Assembly: GCA_951406725.2 (NCBI GenBank)
Contig: OX597819.1
Coordinates: 74,152,001 to 74,216,000 of the forward strand
From: Octopus vulgaris
Taxonomy: Eukaryota
Reading direction: 5' to 3'
Length of the DNA stretch: 64,000 nt
In this document: positions 4,016 through 63,937 of the stretch, piece by piece
How positions within the stretch are numbered: position 1 is the stretch's first letter
Layout: every line of letters starts with the position of its first letter
Made by a program: the position numbers and the translations under genes
Notes under the pieces: generated by a model
What the model saw: only the letters and a program-made list of their open reading frames with translations
What the model was told of the DNA's origin: nothing
Databases searched by the model: none

Positions 4016-6928
<2,913 letters not shown>

Positions 6929-7031
6929 TTTGTGTGATTACTCGTTGTGAAAAAGGTTTTGAGAGAACGTCATGTTGTATTTCCTTTGCTTGTTACAATT
7001 TATTGTGTTTAAGTGACGATGGAATATCGGC

Positions 7032-7230
7032 TTATATAGTTGTTTTAGCAGTGATAGGTTTGGAAAATCCCGTTCTATGTGATGGCCTTCATGAAGCTGG
7101 AAGATTTACTCTTCCTTTCTCTATTGTTTAAATTTAGTTTACGAAAATTGCTTGCTTTCATTTCTGGCGGAAGTTGAAGCTTGTGCTAATATTTTACTTT
7201 CAGTGTGACAGAGATTTAGGTTTACGGGAA
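7032..7230 (-). promoter_or_regulatory. G1 promoter: TATA box, NF-kB site, STAT/GAS-like site
   Basis: On the - strand: TATATAA 7032-7038, GGGATTTTCC 7062-7071, TTCCCGTAA 7222-7230. Confidence 0.65.
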
Positions 7231-8919: not shown

Positions 8920-8929
8920 GGGATTTCCC
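8920..8929 (+). promoter_or_regulatory. kB consensus site GGGATTTCCC in the G1/G2 shared spacer
   Basis: Perfect GGGRNNYYCC match. Equivalent sites at 26545-26554, 31824-31833 and 41249-41258. Confidence 0.45.
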
Positions 8930-9339: not shown

Positions 9340-9520
9340 TGTACCTGTAATTCAGAATGTGTCAGCCTTATCACATTCTTTATCATACTGAATCTCCTTC
9401 AGAATTACGTTAAGTGTACACGTGTCTGTGGTGTACTGAGCCGCTTGCACGTTAATTTCATGAAAACTCTGTTCGTTTCATCATATCATCTGGAACACAC
9501 GTCGTCATAACCGACGGAGA
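9340..9520 (+). mobile_element. Old SINE fragment inside the duplicated spacer module
   Basis: Diverged homolog of the body of the SINE at 18178-18558 (gaaattaacgtgcaag..ctccacagacacg..cttaacgt). Copies at ~16910-17095, ~26960-27145, ~40660-40845 and ~47150-47335. Confidence 0.6.
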
Positions 9521-10100
9521 ACCAGGTCGCTTGCAACAAGGATTTCTATTATCTAGTCGAAGATTTCTGTACTTGCCATATTCTTATATTGATGCTGTTT
9601 CTTCTGTTTCGTACCCCCTTCCTCCTCTTCTTTCTCCTCCCCCTTCCCCTCCTTCTAAACACATTCCTCCATTTGTGACTGTCGGTATTGTTGGTTGTAA
9701 ATTATTTTCAATAGTTTCTGTATTCGTTTTTTTGGATATTAGACCCTTGATTTCTGAATGTATGTGAGTTTGTGATTGAGGGAGTTATACGATGTTTGAG
9801 TGATTGGTTTCTTTATTTCGTTCTGGTATTCGTGATGGTGAGGATGGGTGTGGTGGCGGTAGTGGTGGTGTTCGTGGTGGTCGTGGTCTTGAAGATGATG
9901 AAGTTGATACACATGATGATGATAATGATAATGACGAGGAAGACGTTGTCGACGTCGATAGTAACAACGATTTGTAACCTGAAACTGTAACTCACTATTT
10001 CCCGCGCGGTTACTTCCCGTTAAGCGAAAGTAACCTACTAGCAATTGGACTGTGACCTATATACTATGATAAAAATAGTTCATTCATAAAAGCTTTCCTC

Positions 10101-10300
10101 TTTCCGTAAACCTAAATCTCTGACACATTGAAAGTAAAATATTAGCACAAGCTTCAACTTCCGCCAGAAATGAAAGCGAGCAATTTTCGTAAACTAAATT
10201 TAAACAACAGATAAAGGAAGATGATATCTTCCAGCTTCATGAAGGCCATCACATAGAACGGGATTTTCCAATCCTATCACTGCTAAAACCACTATATAAA
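10101..10300 (+). promoter_or_regulatory. G2 promoter: STAT-like site, NF-kB site, TATA box
   Basis: TTTCCGTAA at 10101, GGGATTTTCC 10260-10269, TATATAAA 10293-10300; ATG at 10403. Confidence 0.65.
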
Positions 10301-10402
10301 CCTATATTCCATCGTCACTTAAACACAATAATTCGTAACAAGCAAAGGAACTACAACTTGACGTTCTCTTAAAACATTTTTCATAACGAAAAATCAAACA
10401 GA

Positions 10403-10439
10403 ATGAATAACTGTAAGTATGAGGTCGGCATTATATACA

Positions 10440-11154: not shown

Positions 11155-12126
11155 AACTGTCTATTAATTGTTTTAGTCCGCTGGTTTGCGGCCATGCTGT
11201 GACACAACCTTCAAAACTGTTTAGGTCGAATTTACCATCCCGAGGACTTATTTGAGAAAGCCATGTACTTATTCTGTTGGTAACTTTTTACCGAAGAGTT
11301 ACTTTTCCTGTATATAAACACACAAGCATTGGCCATCAAGCGGTACTCAAGAGAGAGCGACAATGACACCGCCCACACACATATACACACATATACACGC
11401 GCACAGAAATATGTAAATATATGTATGTCCCTGTCAATGTATGCAATTATCTATCTCTCTTTCTCTATCTATATATCTATCTATCCAATGCTTTCTATCT
11501 ATCTATCCAATTCTTTCTATCTATCTATCCATCTAAGTATCTATCTATCATTCTATCTATCAATGTAAGTGGCTTTAATATAAGTGGTTTTAAACGCACA
11601 TATTATATATCACATTTACTAATACTAACAACATACACACACATCTTACATATGAATTTACTACTATTAATTATATAGACACATTGACACACTACACAAG
11701 AAATTATGGTTTATATTTAGTGGAACTATGTTAAATATTTGTGAATATCGTTTATTGAGTTCCAAAATGTTCAGCTCATTGTTTACTACACGTGAAAAAC
11801 TAACAGCGACTTAACGACTTATTTCTTTTTAATAATAACAATTCCTTCAATGTCTCCCTTTCCTTCCAAATGTTCCTTAATGGTATTTTTTTCCATTTTC
11901 CCGTAGATTGGCAATATATATTGGTCCTATGTCTCTCAGTCTGGATTTCATTCATCCATGGAGCGTCTATAAAACCGACAGCGATACCAATAAATAACAT
12001 AAAAGCTCAGCTGGAGGCGGCTCGCAGGGCCTCAATAGCCGTGAACACTACTTTGCACTCTTTTGTAAGTTTACATATATTCATTCATATATTATTGTTA
12101 TTATTATTGTTATACTTGATATTGTT

Positions 12127-12167
<41 letters not shown>

Positions 12168-13585
12168 TATTACAACTTCTTATACCACTCCAATAATATA
12201 TTACTTAAAATACTACCCACATAATAATTAATAAAGTTCTCATAAAGATCAATATTTATAACTATTAGTTCAGTGTAAACGGACTTCTACTCACTTGTTT
12301 TCTAATCCTATCTGTCCAAATCTCAGACTCATAATATGTCACGTGTTTTTCTACAGTGCCACAACACTCCAATGGCTTCTGCGGTATCCTGTCGTCAGTT
12401 TATTCATATGATACTCAACCAGACGGAACTTACATTCCCTCAGCTCAACATTCAAGACAATATCACCATCGCGCAGACAGACTTAGTCAAGGTATGGACA
12501 TATTATCAAACACATTTTCTTGAAATATTTATACACTTTTTATCTAAACTCGATTCTATATTTTATAAGAAATCTCAATTAGTGTCGAATCAAATTCAAG
12601 CTTCTCACAATTCTTTATTACAGATTGCTCTATCCAATATGTCTGCAACCCTCAGTCAATATGTTACTGTGTTGAAGAATCAGACGGAAAAAGAATATGA
12701 CCAGCTGTGTGCCCCTGCCAAACGTATACAGACAGAGTGTCATTATCCGGCAGCCTGTTCTAAACTCACTCCCACATCTGATGCCATATTTTATTGTTAC
12801 TTAAAACAAACACTTTCTTACCTGGTTGATACGATACTTTTTCTGGATTCACCGGTAAGTATTATTCTCGTAATATATTTTCCTAGATGAAGATTCACGC
12901 GATTTCTCTTTCATTTCCTCACGAAAAATTAACGTAGATAAATGCCTTGTTCAATAAAACAGCACCAAAATATCCTCATGTTTATCGGAATATATTAAAT
13001 ATATATCTCATAGAACTGATCCGGGAAGATATAGTCAGTTTATTTACAGAAACTGTTGTCAAAAGTCCAAAAGTGCTATTCTTTAGATTCTCTCGGAGTA
13101 ATATATACTCATTTCGAAGCATTCTTTCAAAGTATTCTTGTGTTTCATCTTCAGGGTTTCTAAGATTTCTGTCGTAAAATACTTCGTGTAGACGATAATC
13201 AGCTTACGTTCTACACACTTTCCTCATTTATATGATGTAGACAACAATGCGAATATGTGTAATCTTCGTAGAATGTCTAATTATTTGACGGAATTACTCC
13301 AATTAGAATAATTTTGAACCGTTATAATTTAATAATATTACTTAGTCTATCAAAATATTATACGTAATATATACATACGTGTGTGTGCATATGTGTCTAT
13401 ATTATTATTAGTAGTAAATTCATATATAACATATGTGCGTTTATTATTAGTATTAGTAAATGTGATATATAATATGTGTGTATAAATGTCTCTATAGTAT
13501 TGAATGTAGAGAGAAATAGCTACATTGACCATGTTTAGATCTCATCCACGTTGGGTTAACTATAGATAAATAAATATATATATAT

Positions 13586-13639
<54 letters not shown>

Positions 13640-13933
13640 CTTTATAAGGTGTGGACTGTGAGCCCCGGTAGGTTTCATTGCATGTGTATCGTGTGTGTGT
13701 GTTTGTATGCGTGTGTGTATTAATATCAATTAATGTGTATCTCTTATTTACAATGTTCTTTTCATATATTTCAGATATTTTCAAACATCAAACAAAATGT
13801 CGAAGTGGATGACAGTCTTTTGCTACCGGATGATGTGCCAATAACCAAGCAGCGATGGTTTACCATAATTACACTCCATACACTTCATGAAAATATAAAC
13901 CACATTCAAAATACTCTACAATCCTTTATGTAA
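10403..13933 (+). CDS. G2: secreted helical cytokine-like protein, 274 aa, 4 exons
   Basis: Exons 10403-10412, 11907-12064, 12357-12854, 13775-13933. All introns GT-AG with GTAAGT donors, phases 1,0,0; continuous open frame. Confidence 0.88.
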
Positions 13934-14624
13934 TTAATTCCCGTTATAATACTTCTGGAACCAATCTCAGTTAGAGAAAAATCAGATACAAGTGTATCGT
14001 TTCAATTATGTAGAAGTGTTTTAGCTTCACCACTTAATAATCATATCGACGATTATATTAATCGTTAAATACCAATATTTCCATAAATTTTTTTCTTATA
14101 TTTTCTTATCACGTTTATAATCGTAAACAATATATATTTCTCCTTTATGAAATCAATATTTCTATTTAATATCGTGTTACATCGATGTTATTGGTATTAA
14201 AACAATGGAACTGTGACGGATCAATCTATATATATTTTTCATATATACATAGCTATATTTATATATATATATATATATTCATATATACATAACTATACCT
14301 ACGTTATTTAATTCATTTTTTATTTTTTTATTTTCCGATTCCATTTCCTATTTTTTTAATCTTCGTTATAATATATACACCATATTCCTATGCATTATAC
14401 TAGGAAGACTTCCCTGCATACTCACACACACACACACATATACGCCAACATCATTTCTATTATTTATTATATAAATGAGAATTATATTTTTGTATGGAAA
14501 CATTAAAGTGTTAATATTTTATTTTATATTTTGTTGTTTGTGTTTTTGATTTTGTTCAATGAGTGGATTACAACTTCGTTACAGACATCCATATTATATT
14601 TACTGCTTGTTCCATTATTTCTTG

Positions 14625-15307
14625 ATATGGGCCAGCAATTTCGGGGAGGTGTAATGGATTTCAACGACCCCATTACGTAAATGGTACTTATTTTATGATG
14701 ACAGGAAGACTGAATATCCTATAGGTGAGATACATTGTAATATAATGTATATAAAATATATATTAAAGATAAAGAAATGACTGTAACATAAAATATAAAA
14801 AGAAATTATAAAATAAATCACAACAATAGTGCGACTGTATTCAGAATGGGCAAAGCCCATCACGTCGGGCTTTACAACATGATAATCTTTGGAGCCATTT
14901 CACAAATATTTCTTGAAGACAAACAATTTTTACATGTCAGAGAATATCTGCTCTGTAAACTTCGGATGTTGCTCTCCACGCGTCGTCAAGAGAGCGAGAG
15001 GAAATAAACAACTTTATCGATACGACGATTCCATACAAATTTCGCTCTTTAGACTTCTATAGCTCATCTTAGCGAATTCATCCTAGAAATATATGTGTAC
15101 AACTATTGTTGTGATTTATTTTATAATTTCATTTTATATTTTATGTTACAGTCATTTCTTTATCTTTAATATATATTTTATATACATTATATTACAATGT
15201 ATCTCACCTGTAGGATATTCAGTCTTCCTGTCATCATAAAATAAGTACCATTTACGTAATGGGGTCGTCGAAATCCATTACACCTCCCCAAATTGCTGGC
15301 CCATATC
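14625..15307. repeat. Local inverted duplication: ~205-bp arms around a ~270-bp spacer
   Basis: 14625-14830 (gatatgggccagcaattt..aaatcacaacaatagt) is the near reverse complement of 15102-15307. Confidence 0.85.
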
Positions 15308-15900: not shown

Positions 15901-18177
15901 ATGAATAACTGATTAGAAATACGAGGGAGTTTGAGAGAACGTGCTGTGATATGTAAGTGTGGGAATTTGATGTCGAATATATGATGTCGAATATACAATG
16001 AATACTTCTAGATAATGAATAGCATGATATCATAAACATTGATGTGGAACATTGCCGGATAATGAACATTGTACGATACTAAACAGAGTATCGTACAATC
16101 ACAATCACATTCTATGTGATGGCCTTCATGAAGCTGGAAGAAATCATCTTCCTTTATCTATTGTTTCAATTTAGTTTGCGAAAATTGCTCGCTTTCAATT
16201 CTGGCGGAAGTTGAAGCTTGTGCTAATATTTTACCTTCAATGTGTCAGGAGATTTAGGTTTACGGGAAGAGGAAAGCTTTTATGAATGAACTATTTTTAT
16301 CACAGTATATAGGTCACAGTCCAATTGCTAGTAGGTTACTTTCCCTTAACGGGAAAGAACTGAGCGGGGAATAGTGAGTTACAGTTTCATGTTACAAATC
16401 GTTGTTACTATCGCAGTCGACAAAGTCGTCGTCATTATCATTGTAACCATCATATATATCATCTCCATCATCATCTTCACTACAACCAACACCATCACAA
16501 CCGCCGCAACTACCAACACCACCACCACCACCACCACCACCAGAACGAAATAAAGAAACCAATCACTCAAACATCGTATAACTCCCTCCATCACAACTCA
16601 CATACGTTCAGAAATCAAGTGTCTAATATCCCAAAGAACGAATACAGAAACTATTGAAAATAATTTACAACCAACAATACCGACAGTCACAAATGGAGAA
16701 AGGTACTTAGGCGGAGGAGGAGGAGGAGGAGGAGGAGGAGGAAAAAGGGGAGGAGGTTGTGGTGGTGGTGGTGGAGGAGAAAAAGGAGGAAGAGGTAGAA
16801 GAGGAGGGAGGGGAGGCGAAACAGAAGAAACAGCATCAATATAAGAATATAGCACGAACAGAAACCTACGACTAGATTATAGAAATCCTTATTGCAGGCG
16901 ACCTAGTTCTCCGTCGGTTATGACGACGAGTTTTCCAGATGATACAATCAAACGAACAGAATGCTCATGAAATTAACGTGCAAGCGGCCGAGTACTCCAC
17001 AGACACGCGTACACTTAACGTAATTCTGAAAGAGGTTCAATATGATAAAGAATGTGATAAGGCTGACCCCTTCTGAATTGCAGGTACAACTCAACAGTTG
17101 TGACTCAGGAATGGCAAACATAGAGGCATTCACCAATGTGACTCTCTCAATCCTTTCTTCGAAGCACAAACGTAAAGGACTTGATCTTCAAAAGCCCAAC
17201 CATCAACACCATGCGTCAATCAAAAACCATCAAGTAATATCTAGCAAAGATTAATTCACTTATCCACCCCAACCCCGAATTTTCTGTAAAAACTTGTGGA
17301 GATAGCTGATGCGGAATATGAATTAGGCAAAGTTACAACCAGTTAGAAATATCCGAGGGATAAAGACGGATATTAATTGCGTGAAACAAGAAATCTCTTA
17401 TGTTACATAATCTGGTCAATCTTAAGGAAACTACATTGGTTAAACCGGAATCTCCTTGGATGAAAGAGTGAACATACACACACGTTATTCCGAGCGAAAG
17501 GAAATCCCACTTAGTGAAAATTAACTAATTTGTGATAACAAGTTTATTTTTATCCTGTTTGTCTTTGCTTAAGAGACGATCCAAAATATTTTTTAAAAAT
17601 TGAGAAGTATTTTCTAAAAATATATTCTCCAAAATTAACTTTGCTTAAAAAAACAATAATGAACAAAAGAAAATATGGAGAAATTAATTGATAAGTACAC
17701 ATATATTTCTAGGATGAATTCGCTAAGATGAGCTATAGAAGTCTAAAGAGCGAAATTTGTATGGAATCGTTGTTTATTTCCTCTTGCTGTCTTGACAACG
17801 CGTGGGGAGCAACATCCGAAGTTTACAGAGCTGATATTCTCTGACATGTAAAAATTGTTTGTCTTTAAGAAATATTTGTGAAATGGCACCAAAGATTATC
17901 ATGTTGTAAAGCCCGATGTGATGGGCTTTGCCCATTCTGAATAGAGTCGCACTATTTGGCGTAGGGTATACATTTTCAGAAGTAAGGCCGATTCGTTTTC
18001 CATTTGTTTTCTTTCTTCTCTCTTTCTCACTCCTACTAACGAGTTCGCTGTTAAAAGATATTTCTATTTTAATGTTGTACTTTTCTCATAGTAAATGCTT
18101 TCTCTCCCTCCCTCTTTCTCTCTCTCTCATACACACAGACACAGACACACACACACAAACACACACTCACACATACG

Positions 18178-22020: not shown

Positions 22021-24850
<2,830 letters not shown>

Positions 24851-25433
24851 TTTGTGTGAATTTTCGTTATGAAAAAGGTTTTGAGAGAACGTCCATGTTG
24901 TAGTTCCTTTGCTTGTTACAATTTATTGTGTTTAAGTGACGATGGAATATCGGCTTATATAGTGGTTTTGTGCAGTGATAGGTTTGGAAAATCCCATTCT
25001 ATGTGATGGCCTTCATGAAGCTGGAAGATATCATCTTCCTTTATCTACCGTTTAAATTTAGTTTTACGAAAATTGCTCGCTTTCATTTATCGCGGAAGTT
25101 GAAGCTTGTGTTAATATTTTACTTTCAGTGTGACAGAGATTTGGGTTTACGCGAAGAGGAATGCTTTTATGAATGAACTATTTTTATCACAGTATATAGG
25201 TCACAGTCCAATTGCTAGTAGGTTACTTTCGCTTAACGGGAGGTAATCGAGCGGGGAATAGTTATTTACAGTTTCATGTTTTACAAATCGTTGGTACTCT
25301 CGCCGTCGCCAACGTCGTCGTCGTCATTATCATTGTCATCATCATGTGTATCAGCTCCATCATCTTCACCACCAGCACATACATATATACATTCATACAT
25401 ATATAAATACATGCATGCATAGGAACACACACA

Positions 25434-25525: not shown

Positions 25526-28036
25526 AATGTAAGATCCAGGGATGGAGATTTAGTAAGACAGCTTCATGCAATTCTACGGTAGGCGACAAGGTTTTGCGAA
25601 TTTGCAAAAAGAATGCAAAATGGAGAAGGAAAATCCGGGATACATGTGTTTCATGGCGAGTGAAACTTCAGAAGTGGTAAAATCCAAGTGAGGTGTATAC
25701 TGCCACCTAATCATCATGCCAAGGATATCTTCATTAGATTAAAGGTTATAATTGTCGTGGATTGTCTCTGAAGCAAAGACAAACAGGAAAAAAAATTAAA
25801 CTTCTTAACGCAAATTAGTTAATTTTCACAAAGTAGGATTTCCTTTGCTCGGGAAAATGTGTGTGTATGTGGCCCCGTTCATACTCTCATGCAATACCTA
25901 ACAAAGGTGAAATTCATTTGAAAACACATCTGGAATTGTTTCTCCAAATGCTTGTGGAGATAGCTGATATGAAATACGAAGGAGAGAAAATAACAACCAC
26001 ATACAAACAGGCCCCGTGATAAAATGAAAAAGAAGCGATTCTTTAAGATATACATGGCGTTTATGTGCAGGCGTGTACATGGATCAGTGATATATAAATA
26101 CATACATACACACACAAACACACATACACACACATATACACACACAATTTCCATACTAATATGTGTAGAATTAATAAACGAGTAGCAAAACTTCAGAAAC
26201 AATTCATTGAGAGATAGAAGTGAAAATGTCAAAATTCCGTTTCACCTAATTTTCAATTAAAAAATAAGAAAAAGAGAAAGTAATATAAAAATATGTATTT
26301 GAGGCGGAATTTTTCAGTTTAGGGTCGTTTTCATCTCTCCTAAAGAAGTATTTCGAGACGGAGGTAAAAAAAATATTGTCTTTTGTTCAGTATTGTCTTT
26401 TAAAGACAAAGTTAATTTTGGAGAATTTATTTTTAAAAAAATACTTCTCAATTTTTAAAAAATATTTTGGATTGTCTGTTAAGCAAAGGTAAACAGGAAT
26501 GTAAAAATAAACTTGTCATCATAATTAGTTAATTTTCACTAAGTGGGATTTCCCTTTGGTCGGGATAAAGTGTGTGTATGTTCTCTCTATACTCAAGGAG
26601 ATTCAAGTTTAACCAATATAGTTTTCCTTACGACTAGGCCAGATTATGTAACATAAGAGATTTCTTGTTTCGCAATTAATATCCATCTTTATTCCTCGAA
26701 TATTCTAAATGGTTGTATGGGTACACTAATTCATCATTCCGCATCAGCTATACCTACTAGTTTTTACTGAAAATTGAGGGTTGGGGTGGGTAAGTGAATT
26801 CATCCTTGCTAGATATTTCTGTGAGGGTGTTTGAATTAATGCGTGGTGTTGATGGTTGGGCTTTTGAAGACCAAGTCCTTTACGTTTGTGCTTCGAAGAA
26901 AGGATTGAGAGAGTCACATTGGTGTATGTCACTATGTTTGCCATTCCTGAGTCATAACTGTTGAGTTGTACCTGCATTTCAGAAGGGGTCAGCCTTATCA
27001 CATTCTTTGTCATATTGAACTTCTTTCAGAATTACGTTAAGTGTACACGTGTCTGTGGAGTACTCAGCCGCTTGCACGTTAATTTCATGAAAACTCTGTT
27101 CGATTGATTGTATCATCTGGAACACACGTCGTAATAACCGACGGAGAATCAGGTCGCTTGCAACAAGGATTTCTATTATCTAGTCGAAGATTTCTGTTCT
27201 TGCCATATTCTTATATTGATGCTGTTTCTTCTGTTTCGTACCCCTTCCTCCTCTTCTTTCTCCTCCCCCTTCCTCGGCTTCTAAGCACATTTCTCCATTT
27301 GTGACTGTCGGTATTGCTGGTTGTAAATTATTTTCAATAGTTTCTGTATTCGTTTTTTGGGATATTAGACACTTGATTTCTGAATGTATCTGAGTTGTGC
27401 TTCAGGGAATTATACGATGTTTGAGTGATTGGTTTCTTTATTTCGTTCTGGCGGTGGTGATGGTGGTGATGGTGAGGGTGGTGGTGGTGGTGGTGGTAGT
27501 GGTGGTGGTAATCGTCGTCGTCGTGAAGATGATGGAGCTGATACACATGATGATGATAATGATAATGACGACGACGACGTTGGCGACGGCGATAGTAACA
27601 ACGATTTGTAACATGAAAGTGTAACTCACTATTTCCCGCTCGGTTACTTCCCGTTAAGCGAAAGTAACCTACTAGCAATTGGACTGTGACCTATATACTG
27701 TGATAAAAATAGTTCATTCATAAAAGCTTTCCTCTTCCCGTAAACCTAAATCTCTGTCACACTGAAAGTAAAATATTAGCACAAGCTTCAACTTCCGCCA
27801 GAAATGAAAGCGAGCAATTTTCGTAAACTAAATTTAAACAACAGATAAAGGAAGATGATATCTTCCAGCTTCATGAAGGCCATCACATAGAACGGGATTT
27901 TCCAAACCTATCACTGCTGAAACAACTATATAAGCCGATCTTCCATCGTCACTTAAACACAATAATTCGTAACAAGCAAAGGAACTACAAATTGACGTTC
28001 TCTTAAAACATTTTTCATAACGAAAATTCACACAAA

Positions 28037-29957
<1,921 letters not shown>

Positions 29958-30057
29958 NNNNNNNNNNNNNNNNNNNNNNNNNNNNNNNNNNNNNNNNNNN
30001 NNNNNNNNNNNNNNNNNNNNNNNNNNNNNNNNNNNNNNNNNNNNNNNNNNNNNNNNN
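29958..30057. other. Assembly gap (100 N)
   Basis: Run of N. Confidence 1.
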
Positions 30058-30629: not shown

Positions 30630-30639
30630 AGTTATTCAT
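30630..30639 (-). CDS. G5: exon 1 of a further copy whose remaining exons fall in the gap
   Basis: ATGAATAACT|gtaagt on the - strand, with TATA ~30743-30749 and kB 30773-30782. Intron-1 sequence continues into the gap. Confidence 0.7.
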
Positions 30640-32872
30640 TTTGTGTAATTTTTCGTTATGAAAAATGTTTTGAGAGAACGTCAATTTGTAGTTCCTTTGC
30701 TTGTTACGAATTATTGTGTTTAAGTGACGATGGAAGATCGGCTTATATAGTTGTTTCAGCAGTGATAGGTTTGGAAAATCCCGTCTATATGATGTCCTTC
30801 ATGAACCTGGAAGATATCATCTTCCTTTATCTCTTGTTTAAATTTAGTTTTACGAAAATTGCTCGCTTTCATTTCTGGCGGAAGTTGAAGCTTGTGCCAA
30901 TATTTTTTTCAATGTGTCAGAGATTTAGGTTTACGGAAAGAGGGAAGCTTTTATGAATGAACTATTTTTATCACAGTATATAGGTCACAGTCCAATTGCT
31001 AGTAGGTTACTTTCGCTTAACGGGAAGTAACCGAGCGAGAAAAATAGTGAGTTACACTTTCATGTTACAAATCGTTGTTACTATCGCCGTCACCAACGTC
31101 GTCGTCGCCATTATCATTATCATCATCATGTGTATCAGCTCCATCATCTTCACGACGACGACGACGACAACCACCACTACCACCACCACCACCACCATCC
31201 TCACCATCACCACTGCCAGAACGAAATAAAGAAACCAATCACTCAAACATCGTATAATTCCCTGAAGCACAACTCAGATACATTCAGAAATCAAGTGTCT
31301 AATATCCCAAAAAACGAATTCAGAAACTATTGAAAATAATTTACAACCAGCAATACCGACAGTCACAAATGGAGAAATGTGCTTAGAAGGCGGGGAAGGG
31401 GGAGGAGAAAGAAGAGGAAGAAGGGGGTACGAAACAGAGCAAACATAGTGACATACACCAATGTGACTCTCTCAATCCTTTCTTCGAAGCACAAACGTAA
31501 AGGACTTGGTCTTCAAAAGCCCAACCATTAACACCATGCATTAATCAAAAACTCTCATGAAATATCTAACAAGGATGAATTCACTTACCCACCCAAACCC
31601 TGAATTTTCTGTAAAAACTTGTGGAGATAGCTGATGCGGAATACGAATTAGGCAAAGTTACAACCATTTTGAAATATCCGAGGGATAAAGACGGATATTA
31701 ATTGCGAAACAAGAAATCTCTTATGTTACATAATCTGACCTAGTCGTAAGGAAAACTATATTGGTTAAACCGGAATCTCCTTGAGTGATAGAGAGAACAT
31801 ACACACACTTTATCCCGACCAAAGGGAAATCCCACTTAGTGAAAATTAACTAATTTGCGATGACAAGTTTATTTTTTTCCTGTTTGTCTTTGCTTAAGAG
31901 ACAATCCAAAATATTTTTTAAAAATTGAGAAGTATTTTTTAAAAATAAATTCTCTAAAATTAACTTTGCTTTAAAAGACAATACTGAACAAAAGACAATA
32001 TTTTTTTTACCTCCGTCTCGAAATACTTCTTAAGGAGAGATGAAAACGACCCTAAAATGAAAAATTCCGCCTCACATACATATTTTTATATTACTTTCTC
32101 TTTTTCTTATTTTTTAATTGAAAATTAGGTGAAACGGAATTTTGACATTTTCACTTCTATCTCTCAATGAATTGTTTCTAGTTTTGCTACTCGTTTATTA
32201 ATTCTACACATATTAGTATGGAAATTGTGTGTGTATATGTGTGTGTATGTGTGTTTGTGTGTGTATGTATGTATTTATATATCACTGATCCAGGTACACG
32301 CCTGCACATAAACGCCATGTATATCTTAAAGAATCGCTTCTTTTTCATTTTATCACGGGGCCTGTTTGTATGTGGTTGTTATATTCTCTCTTCTATTTCA
32401 TATCAGCTATCTCCACAAGCATTTGGAGAAACAATTCCAGATGTGTTTTCAAATGAATTTCACCTTTGTTAGATATTGCATGAGAGCATGAACGGGGCCA
32501 CATACACACACATTTTCCCGAGCAAAGGGAAATCCTACTTTGTGAAAATTAGCTAATTTGCGTTAAGAAGTTTAATTTTTCTTCCTGTTTGTCTTTGCTT
32601 AAGAGACAATCCACGACAATTATAACCTTTAATCTAATGAAAATATCCTTGGCCTGATGATTAGGTGGCAGTATACACCTCACTTGGATTTTACCACTTC
32701 TGAAGTTTCACTCGCCATGAAACACATGTATCCCGGGTTTTCCTTCTCCATTCTGCATTCTTTTTGCAAATTCGCAAAACCTTGTCGCCTACCGTAGAAT
32801 TGCATGAAGCTGTCTTACTAAATCTTCATCCGTGGATCTTACATTAATATGTGTGTGTGTGTGTGTATGTGT

Positions 32873-32937
<65 letters not shown>

Positions 32938-33505
32938 CCTATGCATTCATGTATTTATATATGTATGAATGTATATATGTATGTGCTGGTGGTGAAGATG
33001 ATGGAGCTCATACATATGATGATGATAATTATAATGACGACGACGACTTTGGCGACGGCGATAGTAACAACGATTTGTAACATGAAACTGTAACTCACTA
33101 TTCGCCGCTCGATTACCTCCCGTTAAGCGAAAGTAACCTACTAGCAATTGGACTGTGACCTATATACTGTGATAAAAATAGTTCATTCATAAAAGCATTC
33201 CTCTTCGCGTAAACCTAAATCTCTGTCACACTGAAAGTAAAATATTAACACAACCTTCAACTTCCGCGAGAAATGAAAGCGAGCAGTTTTCGTAAACTAA
33301 ATTTAAACGGTAGATAAAGGAAGATGATATCTTCCAGCTTCATGAAGGCCATCACATAGAATGGGATTTTCCAAACCTATCACTTCAAAAACAACTATAT
33401 AAGCCGATATTCCATCGTCACTTAAACACAATAAATTGTAACAAGCAAAGGAACTACAACATGACGTTCTCTCAAAACCTTTTTCATAACGAAAATTCAC
33501 ACAAA

Positions 33506-33524
33506 ATGAATAACTGTAAGTATG

Positions 33525-39935: not shown

Positions 39936-42607
39936 TATGTATGTATGAATGTTTGTGTCGCCCCCCCCCCCAGCATTGCTTGAGACCCGATGCTGGTGCG
40001 GTTTCGTCCCCGTACACTAGCGGTTCGGCAAAGTAGTCCGATAGATTTATGAATGAACTATTTTTATCACAGTATATAGGTCACAGTCCAATTGCTAGTA
40101 GGTTACTTTCGCTTAACGGGAAAGAACTGAGCGGGGAATAGTGAGTTACGGCTTCATGTTACAAATCGTTGTTACTATCGCCGTCGCCAAAGTCGTCGTC
40201 ATTATCATTGTAACCATCATATATATCATCTCCATCATCATCTTCACTACAACCAACACCATCACAACCACCGCAACACCAACACCACCACCACCACCAC
40301 CACCACCCAGAACGAAATAAAGAAACCAATCACTCAAACATCGTATAGCTCCCTCCATCACAACTCACATACGTTCAGAAATCAAGTGTCTAATATCCCA
40401 AAGAACGAATACAGAAAGTATTGAAAATAATTTACAACCAACAATACCGACAGTCACAAATGGAGAAAGGTACTTAGGCGGAGGAGGAGGAGGAGGAGGA
40501 ATGGAAGGAGGTGGTGGTGGTGGTGGAGGAGAAGAAGGAGGAAGAGGTAGAAGAGGAGGGAGGGGAGGCGAAACAGAAGAAACAGCATCAATATAAGAAT
40601 ATGGCACGAACAGAAACCTACGACTAGATTATAGAAATCCTTATTGCAAGCGACCTAGTTCTCCGTCGGTTATGACGACGAGTTTTCCAGATGATACAAT
40701 CAAACGAACAGAATGCTCATGAAATTAACGTGCAAGCGGCCGAGTACTCCACAGACACGCGTACACTTAACGTAATTCTGAAAGAGGTTCAATATGATAA
40801 AGAATGTGATAAGGCTGACCCCTTTTGAATTGCAGGTACAACTCAACAGTTGTGACTCAGGAATGGCAAACATAGAGGCATTCACCAATGTGACTCTCTC
40901 AATCCTTTCTTTGAAGCACAAACGTAAAGGACTTGGTCTTCAAAAGCCCAACCATCAACACCATGCGTCAATCAAAAACCATCAAGTAATATCTAGCAAA
41001 GATTAATTCACTTACCCACCCCAACCCCGAATTTTCTGTAAAAACTTGTGGAGATAGCTGATGCGGAATATGAATTAGGCAAAGTTACAACCAGTTAGAA
41101 ATATCCGAGGGATAAAGACGGATATTAATTGCGAAACAAGAAATCTCTTATGTTACATAATCTGGTCAATCTTAAGGAAACTACATTGGTTAAACCGGAA
41201 TCTCCTTGGATGAAAGAGTGAACATACACACACATTATTCCGAGCAAAGGGAAATCCCACTTAGTGAAAATTAACTAATTTGTGATAACAAGTTTATTTT
41301 TATCCTGTTTGTCTTTGCTTAAGAGACGATCCAAAATATTTTTTAAAAATTGAGAAGTATTTTCTAAAAATATATTCTCCAAAATTAACTTTGCTTAAAA
41401 AAACAATAATGAACAAAAGAAAATATGGACAAATTAATTGATAAGTACACATATATTTCTAGGATGAATTCGCTAAGATGAGCTATAGAAGTCTAAAGAG
41501 CGAAATTTGTATGGAATCGTCGTATCGATAAAGTTGTTTATTTCCTCTCGCTGTCTTGACAACGCGTGGGGAGCAACATCCGAAGTTTACAGAGCAGATA
41601 TTCTCTGACATGTAAAAATTGTTTGTCTTCAAGAAATATTTGTGAAATGGCACCAAAGATTATCATGTTGTAAAGCCCGACGTGATGGGCTTTGCCCATT
41701 CTGAATACAGTCGCACTATTGTTGTGATTTATTTTATAATTTCTTTTTATATTTTATGTTACAGTCATTTCTTTATCTTTATTATATATTTTATATACAT
41801 TATATTACAATGTATCTCACCTGTAGGATAGTCAGTCTTCCTGTCATCATAAAATAAGTACCATTTACGTAATGGGGTCGTCGAAATCCATTACACCTCC
41901 CCGAAATTGCTGGCCCATATCAAGAAATAATGGAACAAGCAGTAAATATAATATGGATGTCTGTAACGAAGTTGTAATCCACTCATTGAACAAAATCAAA
42001 AACACAAACAACAGAATATAAAATAAAATATTAACACTTTAATGCTTCCATACAAAAATATAATTTCCATTTATATAATAAATAATAGAAATGATGTTGG
42101 CGTATATGTGTGTGTGTGTGTGTGTGAGTATGCAGGGAAGTCTTCCTAGTATAATGCATAGGAATATGGTGTATATATTATAATGAAGATTAAAAATAGG
42201 AAATGGAATCGGAAAATAAAAAAATAAAAAATGAATTAAATAACGTAGGTATAGTTATGTATATATGAAGATATATATAGATAAATATAGGTATGTCTAT
42301 ATAAGATATATATAGATTGATACGTCACAGTCCCATTGGTGTAATACCAATAACATCGATGTAACACGATATTAAATAGAAATATTTAGTTCAAAAAGGA
42401 GAAATATATATTGTTTACGATTATAAACCCGAAAAGAAAATATAAGATAAAAATTTATGGAAATATTGGTATTTAACGATTAATATAATCGTCGATATGA
42501 TTATTAAGTGGTGAAGCTAAAACACTTCTACATAATTGAAACGATACACTTGTATCTGATTTTTCTCTAACTGAGATTGGTTCCAGAATTATTATAACGG
42601 GAATTAA

Positions 42608-45566: not shown

Positions 45567-46284
45567 TGTATGTATGTATGTAGATATAAAATGTATGTAT
45601 ATATATATGTATATATATATGCTTGTATGTATATATATATATACATATATAAATATACAGGTGGAAAGATTCGATTTTTGTATGTGTTAACAATTACTTC
45701 CTCATGACAATATAACCTTTAATCTATTCAAGATATCCTTCACCTGAATATTACCCTGCCATATACATCTCATTTGGATTTACCACTTTTGAGGTTTCAC
45801 TCGCAATGAAACACATGTAGCCCGAATTATTCTTTTCCGTTCTGTAACTCTTATATTCTTTTTCGCAAACTCGACAAACCTTGTCGCCTACCGTAGAATA
45901 TAAAAGAACTTTTTTCTTCGTATCATTTTTCGAAAAAAAAATTAAATAATCCCCAATCTTCCGCCTGAATACACCGAAATTTGTTCCGAAAGTTGATTTT
46001 ACTTAATATCTTCTACGAATTGCTTGAAATTAACTGTCTACTTACCCCTCGATCCCTGGATCTTACATTTGTGTATGTGTGTGTATTCCTATGAATGTAT
46101 GTGCTTATGTATGTATGTGTTTACGTAAGTATGTAAGTATACGCTTATGTATGTATGTATATATGTACGTATGTATGTATGTATGTATGTATGTATGTAT
46201 GTATGTATGTATGTATGTATGTATGTATGTATGTATGTATGTATGTATTTATATAATGCCGACCTCATACTTACAGTAATTCAT
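42608..46284 (-). CDS. G7: secreted helical cytokine-like protein, 274 aa, with a GC-AG intron 3
   Basis: Exons 46275-46284 (ATGAATTACT|gtaagt), 44473-44630, 43659-44156 (donor GCAAGT), 42608-42766. kB site 46418-46427. Confidence 0.82.
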
Positions 46285-49103
46285 TTTGTGTGATTTTTCG
46301 TTATGAAAATGTTTTGGATAGAAGGCCATGTTGTAGTTCCTTTGCTTGTTACGAATTATTGTGGTTAAGTGACGGTGGGATATCGGCTTTTATAGTTGTT
46401 TTAGCAGTGATAGGTTTGGAAAATCCCATTCTATGTGATGGTCTTCATGAAGCTGGAAGATATCGTCTTCCTTTATCTATTGTTTAAATTTACTTTACGA
46501 AAATTGCCTGCTTTCATTTCTGGCGGATGTTGAAGCTTGTGCTAATATTTTACTTTCAATGTGTCAGAGATTTAGATTTACGGAAAGAGGAAAGCTTTTA
46601 TGAATGAACTATTTTTATCACAGTATATAAGTCACAGGCCAATTGCTAGTAGGTTACTTTCGCTTATCGGGAAATAACCGAGCGGGAAATAGTGAGTTAC
46701 AGTTTCATGTTACAAATCGTTGTTACTATCGCCGTCGCCAACGTCGTCGTCGTCATTATTATTATAACCATCATGTGTATCATCTCCATCATCTTCACCA
46801 TCATCACCACCACTACCACCACCACCATCCCAACCATCACCACCACCAGAACGATATAAAGAAACCAATCACCCAAACATCGTATAACTCCCTCAATCAC
46901 AACTCACATACATTCAGAAATCAAGAGTCTAATATCCCAAAGAACGGATACAGAAACTATTGAAAATAATTTACAACCAGCAATACCGACAGTCACAAAT
47001 GGAGAAATGTGCTTAGAAGGAGGGGAAGGGGGAGGAGAAAGAAGAGGAGGAAGGGGTTACGAAACAGAAGAAACAGCATCAATATAAGAATATGGCACGA
47101 ACAGAAATCTTCGACTAGATAATAGAAATCCTTATTGCAAGCGGCCTTGTTCTCCGTCGGTTATGACGACGAGTGTTCCAGATGATACAATCAAATTAAC
47201 AGACTGTTCATGAAATTAACGTGCAAGCGGCTGAGTACACCACAGACACGTGTACACTTAACGTAATTCTGAAGGAGATTCAGCATGATAAAGAATGTGA
47301 TAAGGCTGACCCCTTTTGAAATGCAGGTACAACTCAACAGTTATGACTCAGGAATGGCAAACTTAGTGACATACACCAATGTGACTCTCTCAATCCCTTC
47401 TTCGAAGCACAAACGTAAAGGACTTGGTCTTCAAAAGCCCAACTATCAACACCATGCGTCAACCAAAAATCCTCAAGAATTATCTAGCAAGGATAAATTC
47501 ACGTACCCACCCCAACCCCGAATTTTCTGTAAAAACCTGTCCAGATTGCTGATGCGGAATCTGAATTAGGCAAAGTTACAACCACTTAGAAATATCCGAG
47601 GTATAAAGACGGATATTAATTGCGAAACAAGAAATCTCTTATGTTATATAATCTGGCCTAGTCGTAAGGAAAACGACATTGGTTAAACCGGAATCTCCCT
47701 GGGTGAAAGAGTGAACATACACACACATTATCCTGAGCAAAGCGAAATCCCACTTAGTGAAAATTAACTAATTTGCGATAACAAGTTTATTTTTTTCCTG
47801 TTTGTCTTTGCTTAAGAGAAAATCCAAAATATTTTTTTAAAAATTGAGAAGTATTTTTAAAAAATAAATTCTCCAAAATTAACTTTGCTTAAAAAAACAA
47901 TAATGAACAAAAGAAAATATTTTCTTTTTCCTCCGTCTCGAAATATTTCTTAAGGAGAGATGAAAACAACTCTAAACTGAAAAACTTTCCGCTTCTCTTC
48001 CATATTGTTTTATTACTTTCTCTTTTTCTTATTTTTTAATTGAAAATTATGTGAAACGCTATTTTGACATTTTCACGTCTATCTCTCAATGAATTGTTTC
48101 TAGTTTTGCTACTCGTTTATTAATTCTACACATATTAGTATGGGAATTGTGGTGTGTATATGTGTGTATGTATGTGTGTTTGTATGTATGTAGATCTAAG
48201 GATTTCTATTATCTAGCCGTAGGGTTCTGTTCTTGCCATATTCTTATATTGATGATGTTTCTTCTGTTTCGTACCCCCTTCCTCCTCCTCCTTCCCCTCC
48301 TCCTAAGCACATTTCTCCATATGTGACTGACGGTATTGTTGGTTGTAAATTATTTCCAATAGATTGTGTATTCCTTTTTGGGATATTAGACCCTTGATTT
48401 CTGAACGTATGTGAGCTGTCATTAAGGGAGTTATACGATGTTTGAGTGATCGGTTTCGTTATCTCACTCTGGCGGTGGAGATAATGGTGATGGTGGCGTT
48501 GGTGGTAGTGGTGGTGGTGGTGATGATGATGTTGTGGATGGTGATGGTGGTGGTGGTTGTGTTGGTAGTAGCGGCGGTTGTGATGGTGTTGGCTGTAGTG
48601 AAGATGATGATGGAGATGATACACATGATGATGATAATGATAATGAAGACGACGACGTTCGCTTCGGCGATAGTAACAACGATTTGTAATTTGAAACTGT
48701 AACTCACTATTCCCCGCTCGGTTATTTCCCGTTAAGCGAAAGTAACCTACTAGCAATTGGCTGTGACCTATATACTGTGATAAAAATAGTTCATTCATAA
48801 AAGCTTTCCTCTTCCCGTAAACCTAAATCTCTGTCTCACTGAAAGTAAAATATTTGCACAAGCTTCAACTTCCGCCAGAAATGAAATCAAGCAATTTTCG
48901 CAAACTAAATTTAAACAATAGATAAAGAAAAGGATATCTTCCAGCTTCATGAAGGCCATCATATAGAATGGGATTTTCCAAACCTATCACTGCTAAAACC
49001 ACTCTATAAGTCGATATTCCATCGTCACTTAACCACAATAATTCGTAACATGCAAAGGAACTACAACTCTCAAAACTTTTTTCATAACGAAAAATCACAC
49101 AAA

Positions 49104-52132
<3,029 letters not shown>

Positions 52133-57844: not shown

Positions 57845-63332
<5,488 letters not shown>

Positions 63333-63937
63333 TTTGTGTGACTTTTCGTTATGAGAATGATTTTGAGAGAACGTCAAGTTGTAGTTCCTTTGCTTGTTAC
63401 GAATTATTGTGTTTAAGTGACGATGGAATATCGGCTTATATAGTGGTTTTAGCAGTGATAGGTTTGAAAAATCCCATTCTATGTGATGGCCTTCATGAAG
63501 CTGGAAGATATCATCTTCCTTTATCTATTATTTAAATTTAGTTTACGAAAATTGCTCGCTTTCATTTCTGGCGGAAGTTGAAGCTTGTGCTAATATTTTA
63601 CTTTCAGTGTGACAGATTTAGGTTTACGGGAAGAGGAAAGCTTTTATGAATGAACTATTTTTATCACAGTATATAGGTCACAGTCCAATTGCTAGTAGGT
63701 TACTTTCGCTTATCGGGAAATAACCGAGCGGGAAATAGTGAGTTACAGTTTCATGTTACAAATCGTTGTTACTATCGCCGTCGCCAACGTCTTCGTCGTC
63801 ATTATCATTATCATCATCATGTGTATCATCTCCATCAATATAAGAATATGGCAAGAACAGAAACCTACGACTAGATGATAGTTATGACGACGAGAATCAA
63901 CCTAACAGACTGTTTATGGAATTAATAATAATAATAA

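Follow-up and report, generated by a model that had tools for sequence, protein, structure and literature searches.

We analyzed positions 10101 to 10418 of a 64,000-nt stretch of the Octopus vulgaris genome (the window; G000:C6:74152001-74216000). We put at about 60% the probability that this interval comprises the core promoter plus the first coding exon of a Rel-inducible, secreted long-chain four-helix cytokine (class I, IL-6-family-like) that is encoded by an array of about 30 copies. Nine copies fall in the window (G1 to G9), and the interval is part of G2 (Table 1). We infer that, after infection or injury, a Rel/NF-kB dimer would bind a site located 23 nt upstream of the TATA box, possibly with help from a distal kB site common to head-to-head gene pairs. 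Binding would switch on many array copies at once, as in the octopus IL-17 genes, and the secreted protein would signal via a class I cytokine receptor and JAK/STAT.

Table 1. Features of G2, promoters of the other copies in the window, and inverted blocks (window positions unless a contig handle is given)
Feature	Position	Strand	Details
STAT-like 9-mer TTTCCGTAA, G2	10101..10109	+	Probably not a functional STAT site
Proximal kB-consensus site GGGATTTTCC, G2	10260..10269	+	Exact in 26/29 array promoters
TATA box, G2	10293..10300	+	23 nt past kB site
Exon 1 coding part, G2	10403..10412	+	10 nt, phase 1, GTAAGT donor
Exon 2, G2	11907..12064	+	Signal peptide and helix A; 158 nt, ends phase 0
Exon 3, G2	12357..12491	+	A-B loop; 135 nt, ends phase 0
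Exon 4, G2	12624..12854	+	Helices B and C; 231 nt, ends phase 0
Exon 5 coding part, G2	13775..13933	+	C-D loop, helix D, and stop; 159 nt
Distal strict kB site GGGATTTCCC	8920..8929	+	~1.34 kb upstream; between head-to-head G1 and G2
G1 promoter and exon 1	6919..7230	-	kB 7062-7071, TATA 7031-7038, exact TTCCCGTAA 7222-7230
G3 promoter and exon 1	24841..25155	-	kB 24986-24995
G4 promoter and exon 1	27735..28046	+	kB 27894-27903; gene enters N gap at 29958
G5 promoter and exon 1	30630..30939	-	kB 30773-30782; intron 1 enters N gap
G6 promoter and exon 1	33204..33515	+	kB 33363-33372
G7 promoter and exon 1	46275..46586	-	kB 46418-46427
G8 promoter	48812..49115	+	kB intact 48970-48979; TATA altered; exon 1 donor broken
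G9 promoter and exon 1	63323..63632	-	Variant kB GGGATTTTTC 63466-63475
Inverted block pair, 39 kb	G000:C6:74064921-74104137 vs 74142823-74181957
Inverted block pair, 21 kb	G000:C6 74123487-74144214 vs 74182058-74202782

The original prediction was that every copy carries a kB site beside the TATA box, ahead of a 10-nt coding exon. GGGATTTTCC was found without mismatch in all eight places predicted (G1 to G8), and G9 has GGGATTTTTC, also as predicted. The site fits the kB consensus GGGRNWYYCC near a core promoter, and it is separated from the TATA box by 23 nt in eight of the nine copies and by 24 nt in G3. From the usual TATA spacing, G2 transcription would start near 10321 to 10325. This arrangement of kB site, TATA box, and micro-exon holds in most copies, but not in G8, where exon 1 is missing two bases, so that the donor is lost and an in-frame stop is left. 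The G8 TATA box reads TCTATAAG, and this copy is likely a pseudogene. The two-base donor lesion (window 49104-49115 in G8) occurs in 3 of 29 promoters, and exons 2 to 5 of G8 stay open.

The array contains 29 full promoters. Exact GGGATTTTCC is present in 26 of them, the G9 variant in one, and a degraded site in another, and the last is without a site. Apart from two outliers, the promoters are 88 to 100% alike. The window holds 16 matches to the kB motif at one mismatch or fewer, versus 2.4 expected, an excess that is due to duplication. The original prediction had cautioned that the copies are recent duplicates, and we agree that the nine copies amount to one observation. It had overlooked the second, distal strict kB site, GGGATTTCCC, which lies at 8920, 26545, 31824, and 41249. 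This site is intact in 15 of 18 distinct copies, and its 2 changes versus 3.9 expected are not significant as a sign of constraint. The head-to-head pairs G1/G2, G3/G4, G5/G6, and G7/G8 are about 3 kb apart and have a common upstream region.

The 10-nt coding exon is real. It reads ATGAATAACT/GTAAGT in seven of the nine copies and ATGAATTACT/GTAAGT in G7, and it opens a five-exon reading frame of 230 aa. The spliced G2 model has coding exons of 10, 158, 135, 231, and 159 nt with phases 1, 0, 0, 0; the vertebrate IL6 intron phase series is 1, 0, 0, 0. Two Octopus sinensis RefSeq models (P0003 and P0004) begin with the same residues as the array reading frame, which supports the micro-exon. The G1, G3, G6, G7, and G9 models are likewise 230 aa and stop free, making seven in all if the broken donor of G8 is ignored, and the G4 and G5 models run into the N gap. 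The pN/pS ratio is about 0.27 (mean 0.023/0.086; 15 pairs from 6 copies), and the array reading frames are under purifying selection.

In the 2.8-Gb genome, exon 4 has 39 matches. About 30 are at 73.95 to 74.30 Mb, and the others are elsewhere on that contig, near 71, 110, 124, and 131 Mb. There are 30 exon 1 matches within the array. This copy number might be inflated by the assembly, because the region holds two sets of inverted blocks (39 and 21 kb) with 99% identity, each of which stops at a 100-N gap (window 29958). The blocks are either recent palindromes or an assembly duplication. Intron 3 (window 12492-12623 in G2) is 132 nt and free of in-frame stops in most copies, and so gene callers have been misled into read-through models such as P0001. 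Its divergence is 0.038, versus 0.086 at synonymous sites.

Judging from the sequence and the model, the 230-aa protein has an N-terminal signal peptide, with a hydrophobic helix at residues 4 to 20. An AlphaFold model built from 18 sequences reached a pLDDT of 81.5, with the five models spanning 40 to 81. It has helices at residues 32 to 59, 97 to 129, 153 to 175, and 201 to 229, and the A-B and C-D loops are long. The predicted model therefore has both the length (150 to 280 aa) and the four helices of a long-chain class I helical cytokine. In a structure search of 48,161 chains, helical cytokines took all of the top 28 places, headed by IL-11 (Z 15.5, rmsd 2.7, 156 residues aligned), CLCF1 (Z 15.1), LIF (Z 14.7), IL-6 (Z 14.5), and CNTF (Z 13.8). 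The IL-6/IL-12 family scored 12 to 15.5, and the best noncytokine match scored 7.6. Z scores below about 13 can be common among helical bundles, but the top rows exceed that value and stand well above the unrelated rows. Foldseek ranked LIF and G-CSF at the top, and none of its matches reached an E value of 0.001 or lower. In a comparison of Atlas features, IL6, IL11, GCSF, IL12, and LIF clusters scored 0.90 to 0.93. One matching cluster has 114 members, which are mostly from molluscs, and 11% of them have Pfam IL6. On the predicted model, the protein is built like an IL-6-family cytokine.

Pfam and PDB sequence searches with the array protein returned no match, and 0 of 18 family members matched Pfam IL6, IL11, GCSF, or LIF at an E value of 1 or lower. 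The IL-6 signature C-x9-C-x6-G-L-x2-[FY]-x3-L (PMC5716431) was absent from all nine proteins tested; its L-x2-Y-x3-L tail alone remains, in helix B. Strict membership of the IL-6 family, as defined by signature and Pfam match, is therefore not shown. Sequence relatives are confined to coleoid cephalopod proteins and unnamed records, and the named ones (Octopus, which are the closest, Argonauta, and cuttlefish) are all called uncharacterized. The cytokine reading of the original prediction is well supported, with the support coming from fold and gene structure and not from the sharing of motifs among copies.

To ask if the kB site is more than chance, we shuffled the 100 nt preceding the TATA box 5000 times, with 300 nt used for the STAT-like motif. 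With one promoter taken alone, 0.7% of shuffles produced a strict kB consensus, and 152 kb of other DNA sampled had 7 strict sites. On a tree of 22 distinct promoters, with the two outliers dropped, the kB site had 1 change versus 5.2 expected (Poisson P = 0.035), and 9% of windows were as low in change. When all 24 promoters were used, the effect vanished, and 24% of windows were as low. The site is intact in 21 of the 22 distinct recent promoters, degraded or missing in the two most divergent ones, and still carried by three promoters with a broken exon 1. Therefore, the proximal kB site may be under mild constraint at most. None of the 40 differences examined, out of 218, is in 10260-10269, which does not by itself prove identity there. 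As for conservation of the site across lineages, divergence in the runs from organisms B and C amounts to just a few percent. Run X1 was rejected as RNA, because its contig spans the promoter and the exon 1 donor unspliced and so behaves as DNA.

A genome-wide count of the combined kB and TATA pattern gave about 587 matches, versus 132 for a reversed control. We dropped this count as evidence; the matches sit mostly in retrotransposon coding sequence, so the pattern proves little alone. The mimicking stretch (loci L049-L078) is present in hundreds of copies, and we take it to be the endonuclease of a non-LTR retrotransposon, as assigned from its reading frame. This retrotransposon stretch is unrelated to the array promoter, and a transposon origin of the promoter was not supported.

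Divergent paralogs outside the recent expansion have 28 to 41% identity, and exon 1 was located in five of them (a sixth, at 71.14 Mb, was left out because its exon 1 call is uncertain). Exon 1 is 10 nt and in phase 1 in the paralogs at 71.08, 124.01, and 124.77 Mb, and it is 4 nt in those at 74.30 and 131.35 Mb. The 10-nt phase 1 exons in these older genes show that the micro-exon is ancient. None of the five has a strict kB match next to its TATA box, and the proximal site is a feature of the expanded lineage. The site matches the kB element of the IL6 promoter, as the original prediction had it (PMC4967822). With the proximal site limited to the expanded lineage, that identity is more likely convergence than descent, and we regard the match as probably convergent. 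The 71.08-Mb paralog has a strict kB site at -597. The paralogs at 124.01 and 124.77 Mb (L012-L015) have a perfect CRE, TGACGTCA, 153 nt above the ATG, with no clear TATA box nearby. In those at 71.14 and 71.16 Mb (L008-L011), the last exon enters a long tandem array with a 30-nt unit that resembles helix D.

The octopus IL-17 genes provided an independent comparison. The genome has 64 IL-17 domain matches, which are clustered. Upstream DNA of 40 loci was taken, exon 1 was located in 25 with a profile built from sequence downstream of the TATA box, so that the kB zone was excluded, and a TATA box was found in 21, leaving 14 nonredundant promoters. Over the 45 nt immediately upstream of the TATA box, GGGRNWYYCC was matched exactly in 2 of the 14, with one mismatch or fewer in 4, and with two or fewer in 10. 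The corresponding background values, from 813 windows at the same loci, were 0%, 1.5%, and 16%. The promoters are paralogs, so that binomial P values overstate the contrast; the background windows all come from these immune loci, and one seed locus (L092) was originally picked via its own kB site. Three of the four loci dropped for want of a TATA box also have a kB-like site. Most IL-17 sites read GGTAATTCC, which is not the strict consensus, others read GGGAAATTCC, and at many only the TTCC half is well kept. An initial scan had found 3 strict sites in 114 kb, versus 20 for reversed controls, and the signal emerged once exon 1 was located. These promoters (G000:C1, L079-L118) have the kB-like site 10 to 35 nt above the TATA box and a short phase 0 coding exon 1. 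They also have a further WTCC peak about 90 to 105 nt above the TATA box.

Because unrelated IL-17 promoters use the same layout of kB site, TATA box, and short exon, the Rel/NF-kB reading gains independent support. The genome has two Rel-homology loci, and transcripts of the NF-kB pathway are reported from O. vulgaris hemocytes (PMC4199593). Together with the low change at the site, which weighs weakly, these observations partly support a role for Rel/NF-kB, as judged from sequence. For the JAK/STAT side, one STAT N-domain match exceeded the cutoff. STAT_bind and IL6Ra-bind domain searches of the genome gave no match, and a FERM_F2 (JAK) match fell below the cutoff; these results do not imply absence. 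A weak Lep_receptor_Ig match is a multi-Ig protein with no WSXWS motif in the 40 kb read.

The original prediction also included STAT feedback through a site about 150 nt further upstream. A STAT-like 9-mer does lie 148 to 151 nt upstream of the kB site in all nine copies, but just four of them (G1, G4, G8, and G9) have it as exact TTCCCGTAA. It is TTTCCGTAA in G5, G7, and G2 itself, and TTCGCGTAA in G3 and G6. PMC4029728 bears out the description of TTCCCGTAA as the M67 core and gives TTC(N)3-4GAA as the GAS consensus. If the full circuit of Rel induction with STAT feedback were real, it would fit with exact TTCCCGTAA being more frequent than any other form (10 of 22 distinct promoters), its presence in one outlying array copy and in contigs of runs X1 and X3 and mostly X2 and X4, its 0.4% chance per 300 nt, and the presence of a STAT gene. 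However, TTCN3TAA arises in 35% of 300-nt shuffles, and the 300 nt preceding the TATA box contain neither TTCN3GAA nor TTCN4GAA. In 12 of the 22 promoters the 9-mer is altered, 7 of them in the TTC half-site, and its 4 steps versus 4.7 expected are the background rate, so that it is no more conserved than its flanks. One-mismatch matches to TTCCCGTAA also fall on the exon 2 splice acceptor and in the 3' UTR. The 9-mer is most likely incidental, and we consider the full circuit distinctly unlikely.

Three other explanations bear on the kB site or on the role of the protein. The cytokine might be real but its kB site a chance 10-mer of one ancestral promoter, passively duplicated, with other factors in control. 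This would suit the single independent origin, promoters that are so alike but for the two outliers, the lack of the site beside the TATA box in all five older paralogs, its retention in three broken copies, and the marginal constraint. We nevertheless think it unlikely, given the 0.7% chance per 100 nt, the second strict site 1.34 kb upstream, and the use of the same position by IL-17 promoters. Another idea is that the gene encodes a helical cytokine or hormone outside immunity, acting in growth, metabolism, or development (leptin-, GH-, or Upd-like), with a promoter to match. IL-6-family chains score highest against the model, which argues against it, even though placental lactogen, GH, and leptin score 10 to 13, a Hormone_1 cluster is at Atlas rank 3, and older paralogs have a CRE. 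Rapid tandem expansion and an IL-17-like promoter layout are typical of immune genes, and the array has both, so we regard a nonimmune role as improbable. We give slightly less weight again to a functional site that is read by an ETS protein or, in an osmotic or stress response, by a Rel-homology protein of the NFAT5/TonEBP type. The lower strand of G2 reads TGGAAAATCCC, which we take to fit the TonE consensus, and the TTCC half is the only part well kept at many IL-17 sites. However, the sites in the array match kB over all 10 bp and have the same sequence as the core of the IL6 site that RelA binds (PMC4967822).

A Rel-inducible array cytokine, our preferred reading, has parallels in known systems. 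Vertebrate IL-6 has five exons, with the first intron in the signal peptide and three in the domain (PMC13081863), as in the array gene. The long-chain four-helix fold is also shared (Z 14.5 between the predicted model and 1ALU), and the human IL6 promoter has the same 10-bp kB core, where RelA binds it (PMC4967822). Unlike vertebrate IL-6, the octopus protein lacks the family signature and has its six conserved cysteines in other places, with identity of about 11%; its gene is in about 30 tandem copies, and the kB site is not common to older paralogs. IL-11, CLCF1, LIF, CNTF, and G-CSF are the best structural matches (Z 13.8 to 15.5, and LIF and G-CSF by Foldseek), but these gp130-family and related long-chain cytokines have no sequence match to the octopus protein. 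Because the structural scores are tied, no single ortholog can be named. The first intron of IL-11 is 7 bp past the start codon (PMC3271213) and is also in phase 1. Drosophila Unpaired-3, acting through Domeless, Hopscotch, and STAT92E, is an invertebrate IL-6-like ligand that feeds innate-immune JAK/STAT signaling (PMC8226699), but no sequence link between it and the octopus protein was found. Octopus IL-17 arrays resemble the G2 array in their clustered expansion, in the kB-like site just above the TATA box, and in a short coding exon 1 about 130 to 165 nt downstream. They differ in that the protein is an unrelated cystine knot, exon 1 is in phase 0 and 3 to 15 nt long, the site is mostly GGTAATTCC or GGGAAATTCC, and the promoters have no clear sequence likeness to that of G2.

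It is possible, though doubtful, that the array is a true IL-6-family homologue, with the five-exon gene, fold, and NF-kB control all from the bilaterian ancestor. If so, a pathway in which Toll/Rel induces an IL-6-type cytokine that in turn acts on JAK/STAT would predate the protostome-deuterostome split, and octopuses would use one kB-TATA layout for two separately expanded cytokine families. Oysters reportedly have interferon-like and IL-12p35-like proteins. Our literature search, which covered few subscription journals and no supplements, found no such cephalopod or mollusc cytokine. One review (PMC8226699) recognizes no invertebrate member of the IL-6 superfamily by sequence, save for reported cases like that of Drosophila Unpaired-3. 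Genes of the STAT and NF-kB pathways are present in molluscs, and a JAK/STAT ligand is not established in the literature searched. The array offers a concrete candidate that is unannotated, in about 30 copies, and equipped with a defined promoter element that is open to mutagenesis. Cytokine promoters with a kB site beside the TATA box are already known (PMC7201933). The site alone is ordinary, and the interest lies in the gene and in the IL-17 parallel. The layout common to the array and the IL-17 promoters suggests a simple rule for finding cephalopod Rel targets, as well as inflammation markers for farmed octopus.

Some minor observations concern the surroundings of G2. Promoter fragments without exon 1 lie at window 16103-16409 (minus strand) and 40046-40277. 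The longer fragment type breaks within the kB site, where it reads GTGATT, and the array has three such copies. A very high-copy repeat fragment is upstream of the promoter at window 9388-9460. At 9997-10006 and 10156-10164 there are an E2F-like TTTCCCGC and an ETS-like ACTTCCG, respectively, which we presume to fit the consensus for these factors; the E2F-like motif differs among copies. The 3' UTR (767 nt) has five ATTTA motifs and two nonamers, as raw counts without a chance expectation. Finally, a 207-nt inverted pair is located 3' of G2 (window 14624-14830 and 15102-15307), and its two arms are 98% complementary.
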